A stretch of DNA of 36,309 nucleotides from Candidatus Saccharimonadales bacterium (GCA_036489905.1 DASXEX010000037.1:1-36309); one strand, 5' to 3'; shown: positions 10,635 to 32,317, numbered from the stretch's first letter. The notes: a model not told the origin generated them from the letters alone. Numbers and translations are program-made.

Positions 10635-10671
10635 ATAATGATTAGTCTCTCACATTTTTGCAGTCAGTTCT

Positions 10672-10700
10672 AGTATAGCAGTCTGTACATCGTATGCCTA
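10672..10700 (-). promoter_or_regulatory. Candidate promoter upstream of secY
   Basis: The minus strand reads TAGGCA-N17-TATACT in the 73-nt gap between the methyltransferase pseudogene and secY. Confidence 0.3.
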
Positions 10701-10707
10701 CGTATTT

Positions 10708-11544
10708 TCACTTGTGTGCGGTAATAATATTGTAGCGAATCAACTCCCGATTATCCCAGAGTTCTACGGCCGACATGGCGTTGATGACATGCTTCTGTAG
10801 GCGCAAAAGCCTTGCGATTCTGTATGGCAACCGGGCAACGGTTGCAAATTGCTTCAGCATGGGCAGTATATGTGGAGTGATATCTTTGACGAAAACACCG
10901 TAGAAACCGGCTGTCACGAGCTTTTCCGGCATGCTGCCCCAAGTAAATTCGTTGAAAGCCGGCATGGCTGCGAACTCGTTCACATATTTTATGCGTTGCG
11001 CGCCGCGTCACTCGTCCGCAGAGAGCTTGTTAGCGGGCTTGAGGCTATACTCGAAAAGTACTAGCTTGCCGCCCGGTTTCAGGACTCGCTGAAATTCTTT
11101 CAAGGCTTCGTGGTAAGCGGGCGAATGCACCAGCGTTTCCATAGTATATACGCCGTCGAAGCTGTTGGCCTTGAACGGAAGCTTTTGGTAGGAGCCGAGC
11201 TTGAAATCGACCCTGTCTGCAAGCCGCTGCCGGTTTGCGGCGCGTACGGCTCGTGCAATATTAAAGTCAAGCAAATCAATGCCGTTGACCCGTAAGGCTG
11301 ATTCCTATGCTAGGTAAAGCGCAACGCCGCCTTCACCACAGCCAGCATCAAGTACCAGTCTGCCTGTCGGCAGCGCCAAAGCTTTGGCAAGTCGCTCACT
11401 CATAAGCAGTTGGGCTTCGGCTTTTGAAATATGCTCCTTGCCTTTCGGGTAGTAGCCGAAATGTTTGACACCGTGCAGCTTTCTATAGCCGATAATACTC
11501 TCCCACGAGTGATAGTAGCCGATGACCGGATTGGTTTTTGACAT
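10708..11544 (-). pseudogene. Class I SAM-dependent methyltransferase (sterol/ERG6-like architecture) interrupted by two in-frame stop codons
   Basis: Three ORF-track pieces (11305-11544, 11008-11274, 10708-10983) are all in the same frame. They are separated by TAG at 11305-11307 and TGA at 11008-11010. Read through, the sequence gives SAM motif I VLDAGCGEGGVALYLA*ESALRVNGIDL, then PFKANSFDGVY and LKPGGKLVLFEY, followed by the C-terminal piece. Confidence 0.7.
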
Positions 11545-11601
11545 TTAGAAACAGTATACAGCAACCTGTAAGTTGCTCGGCTCTTTCTACCCACACAGGT
11601 T

Positions 11602-15576: not shown

Positions 15577-16001
15577 GACGCTTGCTCCTTTTTGCCAGAT
15601 GAGACAACTCTACGGTTTTTCTCATCGCGCGGGGCGTCGGAATAAATTCGCCGCTCCGGCTGCTCTTTTCCCCTACCCGTTTTGTCAGCAGTCTTAGATG
15701 CGGTGTGTTCTTTCGATTCGGTAATTTCTGCGAGCGGGTTGTCGGATTCGACGTGCTTGACGCCAGCCTTCTGTACGATTTGCTGCAATTTGAAATGCTT
15801 ACGTGCGCTGATTGGCCGCGTTTCGATGATCACGACTTTGTCACCTTCGGTGGCCTCATTTTTTTCGTCGTGCGCCATGAAGCGCTTCGTCACGGTGTAT
15901 TGCTTGCGGTATAACGGGTGCGTCAGGCGGACGTGCTCGGCCACGACAATGGTTTTGTCGGTTTTTTTCGAGGCCACGATACCGGTAATCATTTTGGCCA
16001 T
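15573..16001 (-). CDS. rpsQ: 30S ribosomal protein S17 with a ~60 aa C-terminal extension that reads through repeat copy 1
   Basis: 142 aa. The S17 core ends near ...[21 protein letters not shown] (about aa 82). There is no in-frame stop until the TGA that overlaps the rplN ATG (ATGA at 15573-15576). Confidence 0.85.
15599..15673 (-). repeat. Intercistronic two-hairpin repeat, copy 1 (before rplN, inside the rpsQ 3' extension)
   Basis: mRNA sense: GGGGAAAAGAGCAGCC-GGAGCGGCGAA-UUUAU-UCCGACGCCCC-GCGCG-AUGAGAAAAACCGUAGAGUUGUCUCAU. It shares both conserved flanks with the other four copies. Confidence 0.85.
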
Positions 16002-16647: not shown

Positions 16648-16722
16648 ATGAGACAAACCTAACGGTTTTTCTCATCGCGCGGCGCATCGAAGTAAATTCG
16701 TCGCTCCGGCTGCTCTTTTCCC
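16648..16722 (-). repeat. Intercistronic two-hairpin repeat, copy 2 (rpsC|rplP junction)
   Basis: mRNA sense: GGGAAAAGAGCAGCC-GGAGCGACGAA-UUUAC-UUCGAUGCGCC-GCGCG-AUGAGAAAAACCGUUAGGUUUGUCUCAU. Confidence 0.9.
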
Positions 16723-19033: not shown

Positions 19034-19108
19034 ATGAGACAAACCTACGGTTTTTCTCATCGCGCCGGGCGCCGAAATAAATTCGGCTGCTCTGGCTGCT
19101 CTTTTCCC
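19034..19108 (-). repeat. Intercistronic two-hairpin repeat, copy 3 (rplW|rplB junction)
   Basis: mRNA sense: GGGAAAAGAGCAGCC-AGAGCAGCCGAA-UUUAU-UUCGGCGCCCGG-CGCG-AUGAGAAAAACCGUAGGUUUGUCUCAU. It contains a tandem AGAGCAGCC duplication. Confidence 0.9.
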
Positions 19109-20167: not shown

Positions 20168-20239
20168 ATGAGACAAACCTACGGTTTTTCTCATCGCGCG
20201 GAACGCGAAGTGAATTCGCGTTCCGGCTGCTCTTTTCCC
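20168..20239 (-). repeat. Intercistronic two-hairpin repeat, copy 4 (rplC|rplD junction)
   Basis: mRNA sense: GGGAAAAGAGCAGCC-GGAACGCGAA-UUCAC-UUCGCGUUCC-GCGCG-AUGAGAAAAACCGUAGGUUUGUCUCAU. Confidence 0.9.
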
Positions 20240-20266: not shown

Positions 20267-20887
20267 TTACACCGCCTCCTTGAGTAAAACAATGCCTTTG
20301 CGCGGGCCGGGCACAGCGCCGGTGACGCCGATGACATTATTCTCGACATCAACCAATGCGATTTTCAAATGCTTGACCGTCACCCGTTCGTCACCCATTT
20401 GGCCAGCCATTTTCTTGCCCTTGAAAATATGCTGCGGGTACATTGAACCGATGGAGCCGGGCTTGCGGGTGTTGCCCTTGCCGCCGTGCGTTTTGCGCTG
20501 GCGCTCGAAGTTGTGGCGCTTGATGGTGCCGGCCCAGCCTTTGCCCTTGCTTGTGCCAGTCGCGTCGACTTCGTCGCCAACTGAAAAGACCTCGGCGTTG
20601 ATTTTGCTTCCAACTTTGAGGTCTTCGGAGATTTCGCTTGTGCGGAATTCGCGAATAATCTTCGGGAGCATACCGGCGACCTTAAAATGACCTGCTTGGG
20701 CTTTGTTCGTCCGAGCTTCCGAAGTTGTTTCAAATCCGACTTGGATGGCCATATAGCCGTCGCTCTCGGTATTCTTGAGCTGCGTCACGACGTTCGGGCT
20801 GCATGAAAGCAGCGTCACAGCCTGCACCGCACCGTCTTCTGCGATGGTGCTTGTCATGCCGACTTTTCGAGTAATGAGTGCTTTCAT
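20267..20887 (-). CDS. rplC: 50S ribosomal protein L3
   Basis: 206 aa, with MKALITRKVGMTS and GKGWAGTIKRHNFERQRKTHG. Confidence 0.95.
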   Translation of the reverse strand: MKALITRKVGMTSTIAEDGAVQAVTLLSCSPNVVTQLKNTESDGYMAIQVGFETTSEARTNKAQAGHFKVAGMLPKIIREFRTSEISEDLKVGSKINAEVFSVGDEVDATGTSKGKGWAGTIKRHNFERQRKTHGGKGNTRKPGSIGSMYPQHIFKGKKMAGQMGDERVTVKHLKIALVDVENNVIGVTGAVPGPRKGIVLLKEAV

Positions 20888-21028
20888 AGTTGTCTCAATA
20901 TAACGTTATTCTCTCCGCAAATGTGGCGAGCGTGACATAAAAATACTTGGCAGCTGGTGGTTTCTACCTCTGTTATTGGCAGACCTGCTTCAGCACACCA
21001 AGAACCAAAATTTATGAACTACCATCAA

Positions 21029-21093: not shown

Positions 21094-21840
21094 TCAGGCC
21101 GGTGCCGGAAAGGTCGCTAGCTGACCAGCGCCTAGTGCTTCACGTATAGTTCGTCGGGCGGCTTCGGATTCAGGCGTGATTATCTCCGTACCGATAGCGC
21201 TGGATGGCGCGTATTCGATCCCGAGTACTTCTGGCCTACCGCGCCAGCTCTGGGCGATAATTTCTGGTAGACGGGGATTTTCACGGACCTGGTGGTCGAC
21301 AATATCTAGCGTAGCACCTACTGCGCTGAGGCTAATGCAGCCAACTTTTTCTACATGGGGCATGTCGATTAATGTGCCATAACGGAAAGTGACATCCTTC
21401 CGGCCGAGAGCCGGATAGGCTGCTTCCAATACCGATCGCGCAGTAAGGAGCGAGTCGGCATCGGAAGTAATATCCTCAAACAAGAATACTCTGCGGGTCG
21501 CGTCGGTTATCGGTAACGAAAGCTGTCCTGCGGCAAGACACATGTTTCGAAAGCTGATTCCTTTCGCCGAAACGGGCATATAATGTATCGCACTGTCTTG
21601 TTGTAGGCTAACTGCATAGCCCACCAGACGGGCATTCGGGTCTAGACCAATGACAATATCGGGATCCGTTTCCTTAATGGCGGCAGCGATGGGTCTGCTG
21701 AAGCGAGGTATTTCACCCACACTGACGGGTAGATCGATGACTGGTGTAGGCATATGGTTTGCTCTGCGGTGTAAATTTAAAATCCGAGGCACACGTTGTT
21801 CTAAGCCGGTACTTTTGTTGCCGCTGGCACAATGAAACAT
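21094..21840 (-). CDS. Hypothetical protein, possible degenerate type-I phosphoribosyltransferase-like fold (cassette gene 3)
   Basis: 248 aa if started at the 21840 ATG, which overlaps the upstream gene by 40 nt. An alternative ATG at 21753 gives MPTPVIDLPV. RRVFLFEDITSDADSLLTA resembles a PRPP-loop pattern (hydrophobic run, acidic pair, small residues), and DIVIGLDPNARLVGYAVS precedes it. The motif is degenerate. Confidence 0.5.
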   Translation of the reverse strand: MFHCASGNKSTGLEQRVPRILNLHRRANHMPTPVIDLPVSVGEIPRFSRPIAAAIKETDPDIVIGLDPNARLVGYAVSLQQDSAIHYMPVSAKGISFRNMCLAAGQLSLPITDATRRVFLFEDITSDADSLLTARSVLEAAYPALGRKDVTFRYGTLIDMPHVEKVGCISLSAVGATLDIVDHQVRENPRLPEIIAQSWRGRPEVLGIEYAPSSAIGTEIITPESEAARRTIREALGAGQLATFPAPA

Positions 21841-22631
21841 CTATCCATAGCGCTCCTTACTAACGCCACCGCGGCCTTTCGCGGCCGGCGCAGGAAATGG
21901 TCGCTAATCTCATTACAAATCTCGATCCGTAATGAAGGAATGGCTTGCCTCACAGCTGCTATACCATCAGTCTGATTGCCTAGGCGAGTATCTTCTGCTA
22001 GCAATATAAGTCGTGGCGGCGAATTCCGGTTCTTTGTTTGTGCAGTTTGTAACATCGGTATTTGTCTGTCGAGTGGCGAAACGCCTTTTGATTCATCCAT
22101 AAACCCCTTCGTTACAAGCAGTGGGCGACCGCCCTGGCGGCGGTTACGGATCAGTGCGGCTACACCACCATGCCGAGATCCATAAGCCTTTACAATATCC
22201 CACTCTTCGGTGGTTAAATCATTCGCAATCCCTACGCTGTCGGCTTCAATGCGCTCCGCTGCCGATGTGAAGGCTGGCGTAATTCCTGTGATCTGCGTGG
22301 TGCGGAAATCTATGCCAGCATATGTCGCTACCAACAATCCGAGGGAGTGGGTTAATACATATGATGGCGGCGGATCGAGTTCTGACACGAATTCACTAAC
22401 CTTTCTTCCTTGCTCCGAGATAGGCGGCACAGCCACAGAGGTGTCCGTTACTTCGTTGAGCTGCGGCACATGGACGCGTATGCTGCCGGCGCTAGCCTCA
22501 GCCACTTCGTGCGCCGCTATTATGAATGGATCATTCCCATTAGAACCTAAGCCAGTAATACAGAGGATTTCTGTCCGCTCGCAAGCCATAAAATTAATTA
22601 GAAATATATCACCTTCTCTGAATTCGTGCAA
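21801..22631 (-). CDS. Alpha/beta-fold serine hydrolase (cassette gene 2)
   Basis: 276 aa. It has the strand EILCITGLGSNGND, a nucleophile elbow YVLTHSLGLLVA, an Asp candidate in RLILLAEDTRLG and a His candidate in ISDHFL. The start is uncertain: TTG at 22631 or ATG at 22589. There is no clear SD. Confidence 0.65.
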   Translation of the reverse strand: MHEFREGDIFLINFMACERTEILCITGLGSNGNDPFIIAAHEVAEASAGSIRVHVPQLNEVTDTSVAVPPISEQGRKVSEFVSELDPPPSYVLTHSLGLLVATYAGIDFRTTQITGITPAFTSAAERIEADSVGIANDLTTEEWDIVKAYGSRHGGVAALIRNRRQGGRPLLVTKGFMDESKGVSPLDRQIPMLQTAQTKNRNSPPRLILLAEDTRLGNQTDGIAAVRQAIPSLRIEICNEISDHFLRRPRKAAVALVRSAMDRCFIVPAATKVPA

Positions 22632-22634
22632 GGT

Positions 22635-22916
22635 TTAATACGTAATATAAACGCCGACTTGCGTCCAGAAACCGACGAACATTGCAACGAGCAAAATCGC
22701 AAACTCGATCTTGCGATCGATTTTGAAATGGTCGTGCGCCGCAAACAGCACGCCGATAAACAAGCCAATTGGAATAGGGATCTGTGTGGTGCCACCGGCA
22801 TTTTCGAGCCGAACCCACTGCGCGCCGACAATTAAATACAGCACAAGCTTCAGCAAATACACGCTGTCGAGCTCGGGGCCACCGGTTTTCCGCTTACGGC
22901 TTTTCGTTTTTGCCAT
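22635..22916 (-). CDS. Small basic-N-terminus membrane protein with three predicted TM helices (cassette gene 1)
   Basis: 93 aa. MAKTKSRKRKTGG is followed by the hydrophobic segments SVYLLKLVLYLIVGAQWV, IPIPIGLFIGVLFAA and IEFAILLVAMFVGFWTQVGVYI. There is no SD upstream. Confidence 0.6.
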   Translation of the reverse strand: MAKTKSRKRKTGGPELDSVYLLKLVLYLIVGAQWVRLENAGGTTQIPIPIGLFIGVLFAAHDHFKIDRKIEFAILLVAMFVGFWTQVGVYITY

Positions 22917-22981: not shown

Positions 22982-23017
22982 CACTTAAAAGCACCCGTGG
23001 GCGGGTGCTTTTAAGTG
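22982..23017 (-). terminator. Perfect 16-bp palindromic hairpin (bidirectional intrinsic-terminator-like) immediately after rpsJ
   Basis: The sequence is CACTTAAAAGCACCCG-TGGG-CGGGTGCTTTTAAGTG. It has a GC core (GCACCCG/CGGGTGC) flanked by A4/T4 arms, and it starts 15 nt downstream of the rpsJ stop. Confidence 0.6.
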
Positions 23018-23031
23018 AACGCAAAAGTCAC

Positions 23032-23361
23032 TTACATTTTGATTTCGACGTCGCAACCGGCTGGAAGCGATAAGTTCATGAGTGAGTCGATGGTTTTTGG
23101 GGTTGGTTCGAACACGTCGATGAGGCGTTTGTGGACGCGCATTTCGAATTGCTCGCGGCCTTTTTTGTAGACGTGCGGGCTTTTGACGACCGTGAACGTG
23201 CTGCGGCGGGTCGGCAAAGGAATCGGGCCAGCCAAGGTCGCACCGGTGCGCAGCGCCGTGTCAACAATTTGCTTCGCCGCCTGGTCGATGACTTTGTGGT
23301 CGTACGCCTTCAGGCGAATGCGAATGCGCTGCTTAACTTCTGGCTTCTTGGCTGCTTCCAT
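23032..23361 (-). CDS. rpsJ: 30S ribosomal protein S10
   Basis: 109 aa, with [24 protein letters not shown] and [38 protein letters not shown]. Confidence 0.96.
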
Positions 23362-32245: not shown

Positions 32246-32317
32246 ATGAGACAAACCTGACGGTTTTTCTCATCGCGCGGGACGCGAAGTGAATTCGCGT
32301 CCCGGCTGCTCTTTTCC
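32246..32317 (-). repeat. Intercistronic two-hairpin repeat, copy 5 (rpoB|rpoC junction)
   Basis: mRNA sense: GGAAAAGAGCAGCC-GGGACGCGAA-UUCAC-UUCGCGUCCC-GCGCG-AUGAGAAAAACCGUCAGGUUUGUCUCAU. Confidence 0.9.

Follow-up and report, generated by a model that had tools for sequence, protein, structure and literature searches.

The canonical bacterial S10 operon runs rpsJ-rplC-rplD-rplW-rplB-..., and in Escherichia coli an attenuating leader controlled by L4 lies upstream of rpsJ. Here we describe a 36,309-nucleotide (nt) stretch of DNA from a Candidatus Saccharimonadales bacterium (GCA_036489905.1, DASXEX010000037.1:1-36309; this whole stretch is hereafter the window) in which rpsJ, encoding ribosomal protein S10, and rplC, encoding ribosomal protein L3, lie 2147 nt apart, with three open reading frames (ORF1, ORF2 and ORF3) between them. 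An original prediction for this locus took the three genes to be one foreign cassette, possibly an anti-phage module, inserted between two genes that are adjacent in essentially all bacteria. Our analyses instead lead us to favor, as the probable explanation, a cargo slot that occurs throughout the lineage where two operons meet, in which ORF2 and ORF3 form an accessory pair related to nucleotides or phosphoribosyl pyrophosphate (PRPP), rather than parts of a single imported cassette.

Saccharibacteria are ultra-small epibionts with genomes of about 1 Mb, and they salvage nucleotides from their hosts. They lack de novo nucleotide synthesis (PMC7786006), and a 2023 Cell paper (PMC10633639) describes them as naturally competent and mentions rpsJ only as a promoter source. 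A hydrolase combined with a protein of three transmembrane helices recalls Rst_Hydrolase-3Tm, an anti-phage system named in a preprint (Rousset et al., as cited in bioRxiv 10.1101/2024.10.26.620412). We found no literature account of the S10 operon split, of the ORF1 family or of the cargo slot.

Layout of the rpsJ-rplC junction

Our analyses revealed that the three ORFs between rpsJ and rplC are real, all on the minus strand and located where they had been placed. The features of the junction, in window coordinates and listed from rpsJ to rplC, are as follows (aa, amino acids).

23032..23361, minus strand: rpsJ, ribosomal protein S10, 109 aa (Pfam Ribosomal_S10 on the identical gene call)
22982..23017, minus strand: terminator-like hairpin after rpsJ, a perfect 16-bp palindrome with a 4-nt loop
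22635..22916, minus strand: ORF1, small membrane protein, 93 aa
21801..22589, minus strand: ORF2, predicted cytoplasmic alpha/beta-fold serine hydrolase, 262 aa
21094..21840, minus strand: ORF3, probable divergent type-I phosphoribosyltransferase (PRTase)-like protein, 219 or 248 aa
21029..21058, minus strand: promoter-like element, TTGACA-18 nt-TATTCT, TG-extended
20888..21028, minus strand: rplC leader, about 170 nt from the promoter-like box to the start codon (alignment of 66 leaders)
20267..20887, minus strand: rplC, ribosomal protein L3, 206 aa (Pfam Ribosomal_L3 on the identical gene call)

The gene order of the window is rpoB-rpoC-rpsL-rpsG-fusA-tuf-rpsJ ... rplC-rplD-rplW-rplB ... secY ... 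rpoA. The upstream boundary gene, rpsJ, is the last gene of the tuf-rpsJ unit, and its product is 79-98% identical to the S10 proteins of relatives; the downstream boundary gene, rplC, is the first of the rplC-rplD-rplW-rplB... unit. The same arrangement is found on a JGI contig (3300036790) and in an independent Logan assembly (SRR11833918, locus L006), which is 100% identical to the window over 3.3 kb. Because this independent assembly carries the identical arrangement, an assembly artefact is excluded. Thus, the expectation of three co-oriented genes within 2.1 kb between rpsJ and rplC was borne out. The public names of the proteins are all "hypothetical protein," and none of the three has a Pfam, NCBIfam or PADLOC match at E<=1.

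The start of ORF2 is placed at ATG 22589 (262 aa) by two gene callers and by the N-termini of its homologues, while the longest reading frame, from TTG 22631 (276 aa), is the less likely start. Hence, of the 276-aa hydrolase that had been proposed to begin 3 nt after ORF1, the THSLG motif is present and the start is not retained. The start of ORF3 is ambiguous. Homologues align from ATG 21753 (219 aa), and an alternative ATG at 21840 (248 aa) has AAGGAG upstream and gives a 40-nt overlap with ORF2; public calls disagree, with 248 aa at JGI and Logan and 161 aa at NCBI, the latter dropping the N-terminal half of the PRTase-like core. The spacing between ORF1 and ORF2 is 45 nt, and ORF2 and ORF3 are either overlapping or 47 nt apart, depending on the ORF3 start.

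The junction is a conserved operon boundary with variable cargo

We scanned the L3 protein against one genome per GTDB species, which yielded 80 loci, nearly all labeled Saccharibacteria or Saccharimonadales, with rplC products 71-81% identical to that of the window. Gap statistics were taken from the 73 relatives in which both rpsJ and rplC were on the fetched locus. The S10-L3 gap in these relatives has a median of 1868 nt and a range of 255-5760 nt, and it exceeds 400 nt in 71 of the 73; the adjacency of S10 and L3, the premise from which an insertion had been argued, does not hold in this lineage. An ORF1 homologue lies inside the gap, co-oriented, in 59 of the 73 relatives. Cargo flanks this homologue on both sides in 31 gaps, lies only upstream of it in 16 and only downstream in 6, and is missing in the remaining 6. 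The other gap ORFs are highly diverse, forming about 30 small clusters and 75 singletons (ORFs of at least 100 aa).

A Pfam scan of 122 gap ORFs identified NUDIX (10 ORFs), Maf (3), β-lactamase family (3), PfkB (3), Pup ligase (2), DUF3048 (2) and HAD (2) proteins, together with adenosine deaminase, Ham1 and threonine dehydratase, and the further single types RidA, UbiA, peroxiredoxin and integrase core. The commonest identifiable cargo in relatives therefore consists of nucleotide house-cleaning enzymes, namely NUDIX, Maf, Ham1, adenosine deaminase and HAD proteins. Six of the 122 ORFs have PADLOC matches, including PDC-S07 (four ORFs) and PD-T4-2_B (one), and 116 have none. The rpsJ-rplC gap is a long-standing variable slot in this lineage.

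Two of the cargo ORFs in other Saccharimonadales (loci L008-L087) belong to the Pup-ligase family (best E = 8e-70). Actinobacteria, which host the cultured Saccharibacteria, typically carry out pupylation, and a host-to-epibiont transfer of these genes is conceivable and worth checking. The slot elsewhere also holds three β-lactamase-family proteins and one phage-tail-lysozyme-like protein.

The two edges of the slot are marked by recurring signals. On the rpsJ side, the palindrome lies 14 nt past the rpsJ stop codon, with a GC core of GCACCCG/CGGGTGC followed by UUUU, and the 124-nt segment containing it folds with a minimum free energy of -47.7 kcal/mol (z = -5.6). A consensus terminator scan omitted this hairpin, probably because the T-run lies inside the extended stem. 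Among the relatives, 58 of 75 loci have a GC-rich hairpin of -15 kcal/mol or lower, usually with a T-run, within about 110 nt of the rpsJ stop. On the rplC side, the promoter-like box is located 36 nt past the ORF3 stop and 171 nt ahead of the rplC start codon, and an exact TTGACA-N17/18-TAnnnT element precedes rplC by 140-235 nt in 72 of 82 loci.

The leader that follows the box contains the conserved blocks CTTGGTG (21002-20996), TAACAGAGGTAGAAACC (20975-20959) and GCCAAG (20951-20946), and then TATTTTTATG (20945-20936). Its closing helix, TTGGT/RCCAA, is maintained through double substitutions, with a U-run directly after it. RNAalifold on the full leader alignment resolved the closing helix only, the center being too gappy, and an Rfam scan of the window gave nothing at the gathering threshold and one chance CPEB3 match (E = 0.5). 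This combination of a long-range helix and a U-run is attenuator-like and makes the leader a candidate ribosomal-protein autoregulatory attenuator. The leaders upstream of rplC in loci L007-L087 share the blocks ACTTGGTG, AGGTC, TAACAGAGGTAGAAACC and CCAAGCATTTTTATG.

Because the hairpin after rpsJ and the conserved rplC promoter box and leader recur in relatives, we read the rpsJ-rplC junction as an operon boundary with variable cargo. The strong palindromic terminator and the long leader noted in the original prediction are thus both present, but they do not insulate a foreign insert; they are native features, common to relatives that carry quite different cargo.

ORF1 is a native membrane protein of the junction

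The ORF1 protein has a Lys/Arg-rich N-terminus and three predicted hydrophobic helices, as had been noted. Its family comprises about 50 sequences, all co-oriented, and is distinguished by a nearly invariant motif, H-[DE]-H-F-x-[IV]-D-R-K-I-E-Y-A, in a predicted cytoplasmic loop. The family members gave only noise against Pfam and the PDB, and ORF1 itself has no PDB match. In locus L007 the ORF1 homologue is 77% identical to the window protein, where L3 is 76% and S10 95% identical. Its GC content at third codon positions (GC3) is 0.62, native-like and resembling that of the neighboring genes. Of the 59 relatives with ORF1 in the gap, only L007 has an ORF2 homologue and the other 58 lack one, and ORF2 is also found without ORF1. 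ORF1 is a native, lineage-conserved core gene of the junction, and the proposal that the three genes form one imported cassette fails on these counts. Lineage-wide conservation at this site was found for ORF1 alone.

ORF2 is a predicted alpha/beta hydrolase with a conserved triad

ORF2 homologues are extremely scarce. Word-indexed homology searches returned one or two relatives of ORF2 and none of ORF3, and a metagenome scan with a three-sequence ORF2 alignment found nothing. Among 5.8 billion clustered proteins and the gathered loci we found four relatives: P0002 (31% identity), P0004 (31%), L088:7274-8020 (27%) and a partial copy in L090 (30%). The nucleophile elbow of ORF2 is T-H-S82-L-G (Ser82 codon, 22344-22346), and it is accompanied by Asp200 (21990-21992), in the motif E-D-T-R-L-G-N-Q, and His231 (21897-21899); all three residues are invariant in a four-sequence alignment of full-length homologues.

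An AlphaFold2 (AF2) model of ORF2 built from three sequences has a predicted local distance difference test (pLDDT) score of 76.6 and a predicted template modeling (TM) score of 0.77. A Foldseek search with this model gave 153 PDB matches at E<=1e-3, and all 50 of those listed are alpha/beta hydrolases, among them esterases, thioesterases and lactonases, with TM scores of about 0.5, 10-17% identity and no preferred subfamily. The best PDB profile match of the ORF2 sequence is 6I8W (E = 0.13), and sequence prediction found neither a signal peptide nor a transmembrane segment. On the evidence of the motif alignment and the model, ORF2 is predicted to be an alpha/beta hydrolase with a conserved Ser-Asp-His triad, which upholds the earlier assignment and its candidate Asp and His residues.

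ORF3 is probably PRTase-like

Exhaustive HMMER searches of 1.84 billion representatives identified two ORF3 relatives, P0005 (36% identity) and P0007 (a fragment, 39%). A third match, P0006, is a repeat protein and was rejected as spurious. A metagenome scan added a full-length homologue in L090 (39%). In PDB profile searches with the ORF3 family, 9 of 10 and 8 of 9 matches were purine PRTases, with best E values of only 0.002-0.011. The alignment to these enzymes extends over about 120 residues and takes in the pyrophosphate (PPi)-loop region, the SSYG-like loop and the PRPP loop. A comparison of the ORF3 family with the E. coli Hpt segment by hhalign gave 66% probability, and Foldseek of the ORF3 AF2 model (pLDDT 46) ranked purine, orotate and adenine PRTases at the top (E 2e-3 to 5e-2, TM 0.3-0.47), with a purine PRTase in first place.

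The PRPP-loop-like segment that had been singled out in ORF3, RRVFLFEDITSDADSLL, is present at 21445-21495. The HPRT-type loop, VLIVEDIIDSGNTL, aligns with VFLFEDITSDADSL in the window and with IFVIDDAACFGGTL and VFVFDDVAATGMSL in the homologues, and the loops of these two homologues fit well the PRPP-loop pattern of a hydrophobic strand, an acidic pair and then small residues with Gly and Thr/Ser. The SSYG loop aligns with VSAKG, VSSVG and ISSTG in the ORF3 family. The purine PRTase matches in the PDB, the hhalign result and the Foldseek ranking suggest that ORF3 is probably PRTase-like, in agreement with what had been proposed.

ORF2 and ORF3 form an accessory gene pair

ORF2 and ORF3 are accessory genes that occur as an adjacent, usually overlapping pair. 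On a 1.1-Mb contig (L088), the homologues of the two genes overlap, with 23 nt in common. Loci L089 and L090 are 100% identical over a 464-nt overlap, which joins them into an ORF2-ORF3-rplC-rplD-rplW arrangement, likewise with a 23-nt ORF2/ORF3 overlap; the L3 of this genome is only 65% identical to that of the window. A comparison of the junction across relatives, as the original prediction had suggested, recovered ORF1 as described above, and ORF2 and ORF3 in none of the 80 GTDB relatives, not even in those whose L3 is most like that of the window.

The suggested codon-usage check likewise set the pair apart. ORF2 and ORF3 have the lowest GC3 in the window (0.49, with other genes at 0.53-0.73) and the largest codon-usage distances (0.29 and 0.25, respectively, with all others at or below 0.21), whereas ORF1 is native-like. 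The two genes occupy exactly the interval from the ORF1 stop to the rplC promoter box. Of the foreign acquisition argued for the whole cassette, what holds is an accessory status of ORF2 and ORF3.

Borders of the ORF2-ORF3 segment carry no flanking repeats, tRNA or integrase, and insertion as a mobile element was rejected in the absence of flanking repeats and tRNA. The lack of Shine-Dalgarno (SD) sites, which had been taken as a mark of foreignness, does hold for ORF1 and ORF2, but the contrast with native genes is weak, as rplC, fusA, rpsG and secY also lack such sites; we therefore discarded this marker.

Some homologues lie outside the ribosomal operon. In L001 the ORF2 homologue lies near two NUDIX genes, two HAD genes, His_Phos and a YfbR-like HD gene, and in L088 the ORF2-ORF3 pair lies near NUDIX, HD and Exo_endo_phos genes and a weak Cytidylate_kin match; the HD genes of the two loci are 54% identical to each other. 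ORF1 is absent beside the ORF2 homologues of both loci. The L001 homologue is preceded by a 180-aa multi-transmembrane protein, and no membrane partner adjoins the L088 pair.

Beside the pair in L088, a second, short alpha/beta-hydrolase-like ORF of 190 aa with an ILAHSAGC motif is located at L088:5767-6339 (minus strand). This ORF and L088:3098-5089 belong to an operon-like run with HD, NUDIX and P-loop-like (243-aa) genes, whose unnamed ORFs have no recorded Pfam match.

Other features of the ribosomal gene cluster

Two further observations concern other spacers of the cluster. An element of about 74 nt occurs five times in the window, always on the minus strand, in spacers of the ribosomal-protein and rpoBC operons:

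15599-15672, minus strand: 74-nt element
16648-16722, minus strand: 74-nt element
19034-19108, minus strand: 74-nt element, L23-L2 spacer
20168-20239, minus strand: 74-nt element, L3-L4 spacer
32246-32317, minus strand: 74-nt element, rpoB-rpoC spacer

Further copies are found at L085:11246-11320, L057:6640-6711, L080:9144-9219 and L072:7340-7400. The element begins with the core GGGAAAAGAGCAGCC, followed by hairpin 1 and then hairpin 2 (ATGAGAAAAACCGTAGGTTTGTCTCAT). Its nucleotide identity in other Saccharimonadales is 88-96%, while their proteins are only about 75% identical; hairpin 1 shows compensatory changes at 5 of its 13 pairs and hairpin 2 is invariant. The element has no Rfam match. 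A reading of it as a small protein gene (ORFs of 35-51 aa are called there) was rejected, as the reading frame differs between copies. The element is a candidate structured RNA or mobile intergenic element.

The rplO-secY gap (10635-11601, about 970 nt) contains three consecutive short ORFs:

11305-11544, minus strand: ORF of 79 aa
11008-11274, minus strand: ORF of 88 aa
10708-10983, minus strand: ORF of 91 aa

By motif reading (VLDAGCGEGG..., ...LKPGGKLVLFEY), these resemble pieces of one class-I S-adenosylmethionine (SAM)-dependent methyltransferase and may be what is left of an insert, frameshifted or in decay, within this second gap of the cluster.

Discussion

In the explanation that we consider probable, transcription of tuf-rpsJ would end at the hairpin after rpsJ and transcription of rplC would restart from its own conserved promoter and leader. 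Between these signals lies the native gene for the three-helix membrane protein, ORF1, with variable accessory genes on either side. The cargo of the window is ORF2, the putative Ser-Asp-His hydrolase, and ORF3, the putative divergent type-I PRTase-like protein, placed between ORF1 and the rplC promoter, possibly co-transcribed with ORF1 and inherited as an adjacent, usually overlapping pair that would be translationally coupled. The two proteins most likely act jointly, in salvage or house-cleaning, and their target would be a metabolite derived from nucleotides or PRPP. Such a role fits the lack of de novo nucleotide synthesis in Saccharibacteria and the nucleotide-handling cargo that the same slot holds elsewhere. 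Cargo could be exchanged in this naturally competent lineage if the highly conserved flanks served for homologous recombination.

Several points weigh against this reading. The PRPP loop of the window protein is degenerate, with Ala in place of Gly and Asp in place of Thr, although the E-D pair and the final Ser are kept. In HPRT/HGPRT enzymes a conserved Lys after the PRPP loop (LLDKP) reads the 6-oxo group, and this position is Met in the window, Val in L090 and Ala in P0005. The ORF3 substrate is thus probably not a 6-oxopurine, and the degenerate loop together with the absent Lys may mean that the protein has a different ligand or is non-catalytic. ORF3 also has no match to Pfam PF00156 at E<=1 and its model has low confidence, leaving the PRTase assignment weak. 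ORF2 occurs without ORF3 in two loci, L007 (after ORF1, in the same slot) and L001, and with only five ORF2-family and three ORF3-family loci the pairing statistics are thin. These genomes commonly contain NUDIX and HAD genes, so that the raw cargo and neighbor counts are suggestive only. The codon comparison set, finally, is dominated by highly expressed genes, and the nucleotide role of the pair, the hydrolase substrate included, is a prediction from sequence and models.

A more far-reaching version, which we regard as unlikely but credible, holds that the junction is a dedicated gene-exchange slot in which the ultra-conserved S10, ORF1 and rplC promoter-leader segments serve as homology arms by which naturally competent cells exchange accessory cassettes, and that ORF2-ORF3 is a previously unknown two-enzyme system that couples an alpha/beta hydrolase to a non-canonical PRTase; such a system may provide a new nucleotide or PRPP salvage or modification step for epibiotic life, or it may act in a nucleotide-targeting conflict. 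We give less credence to a reading in which ORF1, ORF2 and ORF3 form one membrane or envelope unit, with ORF1 anchoring or partnering the hydrolase, for example in remodeling of lipid or cell-wall precursors, and ORF3 using a phosphoribosyl donor. The tight spacing and common orientation of the genes fit such a unit, as do L007, which keeps ORF1 followed by an ORF2 homologue, and the multi-transmembrane protein ahead of the ORF2 homologue in L001. This reading is improbable in light of the 58 relatives that have ORF1 and lack ORF2, the absence of a signal peptide or transmembrane segment predicted in ORF2, the L088 pair with no adjoining membrane partner and the codon usage that separates ORF1 from the other two genes. 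The anti-phage module of the original prediction, in which the membrane protein would sense or execute and the hydrolase and PRTase-like protein would be effectors, as kin or analogues of Rst_Hydrolase-3Tm or of PRTase-bearing effectors, is the explanation to which we assign the least probability. It draws on the gene order of membrane protein, hydrolase and nucleotide-binding-like protein, the existence in the literature of the Rst_Hydrolase-3Tm system, the variable, hotspot-like slot with its few PADLOC-matching cargo ORFs elsewhere, and the rarity and fast evolution of the ORF families. Yet the suggested PADLOC run matched none of the three proteins to any of 5027 PADLOC-DB v2 models at E<=1 (the presence of Rst_Hydrolase-3Tm models in that set is unconfirmed), and neither the ORF2 nor the ORF3 family was found in scans of IMG/VR viral contigs or by tblastn in GenBank phage records. 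There are no mobile-element borders, whether repeats or tRNA, the conserved neighbors elsewhere belong to nucleotide metabolism, the great majority of the slot cargo has no defense match, and ORF1 is a native gene that occurs without ORF2 in nearly all relatives, as ORF2 does without ORF1. The locus provides no evidence for a new defense system.

Two further readings are each decidedly improbable in our estimate. ORF2 could be an esterase acting on xenobiotics or antibiotics, for instance one of the macrolide-esterase type, that shares a highly transcribed slot next to ribosomal genes with an accessory protein; the macrolide esterases EstX and EstT are among its fold matches, as are zearalenone lactonases, and the slot holds β-lactamase-family genes in three relatives. 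These fold matches are generic, however, with the low identities and lack of subfamily preference given above, and the esterase reading leaves unexplained both the conserved PRTase-like pairing and the nucleotide-metabolism neighbors. Alternatively, ORF2 and ORF3 could be decaying or functionless passengers in a tolerant intergenic slot, as might be suspected from the very few homologues, the degenerate PRPP loop, the inconsistent ORF3 gene calls (161, 219 or 248 aa), the weak SD sites and the broken methyltransferase in another gap of the same cluster. Decay is hard to reconcile with two intact reading frames, a catalytic triad and several motifs that are invariant across genomes at 27-39% identity, a gene order and overlap kept in three genomes, and an ORF2 model that folds confidently from three sequences.

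A cargo slot with an accessory nucleotide- or PRPP-related pair, which we continue to favor, would have consequences beyond this locus. A conserved break in a near-universal operon would be a useful landmark for accessory metabolism and gene flow in this poorly understood phylum, and the rpsJ-rplC slot is a candidate insertion site for genetic tools. The folds of ORF2 and ORF3 are known ones. Their families are uncharacterized and extremely rare, and as a pair they correspond to no described system; together, the hydrolase and the PRTase-like protein make a testable candidate for a novel step in salvage or house-cleaning.

Comparison with known systems

The likeness to Rst_Hydrolase-3Tm is that a hydrolase gene adjoins a gene for a protein with three predicted transmembrane helices. 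The locus differs in that ORF1 and ORF2 match no PADLOC model (with the presence of this system's models in the set unconfirmed), are not co-inherited, and lie not on phages or satellites but among ribosomal or nucleotide-metabolism genes, and in that the membrane protein, ORF1, is a conserved core-genome gene.

ORF2 shares the predicted fold, the nucleophile elbow and the Ser-Asp-His order of alpha/beta esterases, thioesterases and lactonases (PDB 5A62, 3KXP, 2WTM and 3QIT), but at 10-17% identity and a TM score of about 0.5, with no Pfam family even at E<=1. For ORF3, the 6-oxopurine PRTases (E. coli Hpt, 1G9S, 5KNR and 8CAG; Pyrococcus horikoshii, 1VDM) are the best and nearly sole PDB matches of the family, and the acidic pair, the PRPP loop, the SSYG-like loop and the order of the beta/alpha core align. 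The resemblance is a marginal one (E 0.002-0.011), and Pfam Pribosyltran gives no match. ORF3 further differs from these enzymes in the LLDKP Lys, which is replaced by Met, Val or Ala, in the Ala and Asp that take the place of Gly and Thr in the loop of the window protein, in an extra C-terminal region of about 90 aa that has no match, and in that the ORF3-family gene always adjoins an alpha/beta hydrolase gene.

Nucleotide house-cleaning and salvage clusters (NUDIX, Maf, Ham1/ITPase, YfbR-type HD 5'-nucleotidase and HAD) resemble the present case in two respects: such genes are the commonest identifiable slot cargo in relatives, and away from the ribosomal operon they are conserved neighbors of ORF2 and ORF3 homologues. 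ORF2 and ORF3 themselves are members of none of these families, to which only their neighborhood links them.

In comparison with the canonical S10 operon, the window has rpsJ split from rplC by a hairpin, a membrane-protein gene, cargo and a separate promoter, and its leader, which has no sequence or Rfam match to known ribosomal-protein leaders, precedes rplC and not rpsJ. The window nevertheless keeps the gene order on both sides of the break, rpoB-...-tuf-rpsJ and rplC-rplD-rplW-rplB, and its leader, which ends in a helix followed by a U-run, is attenuator-like.

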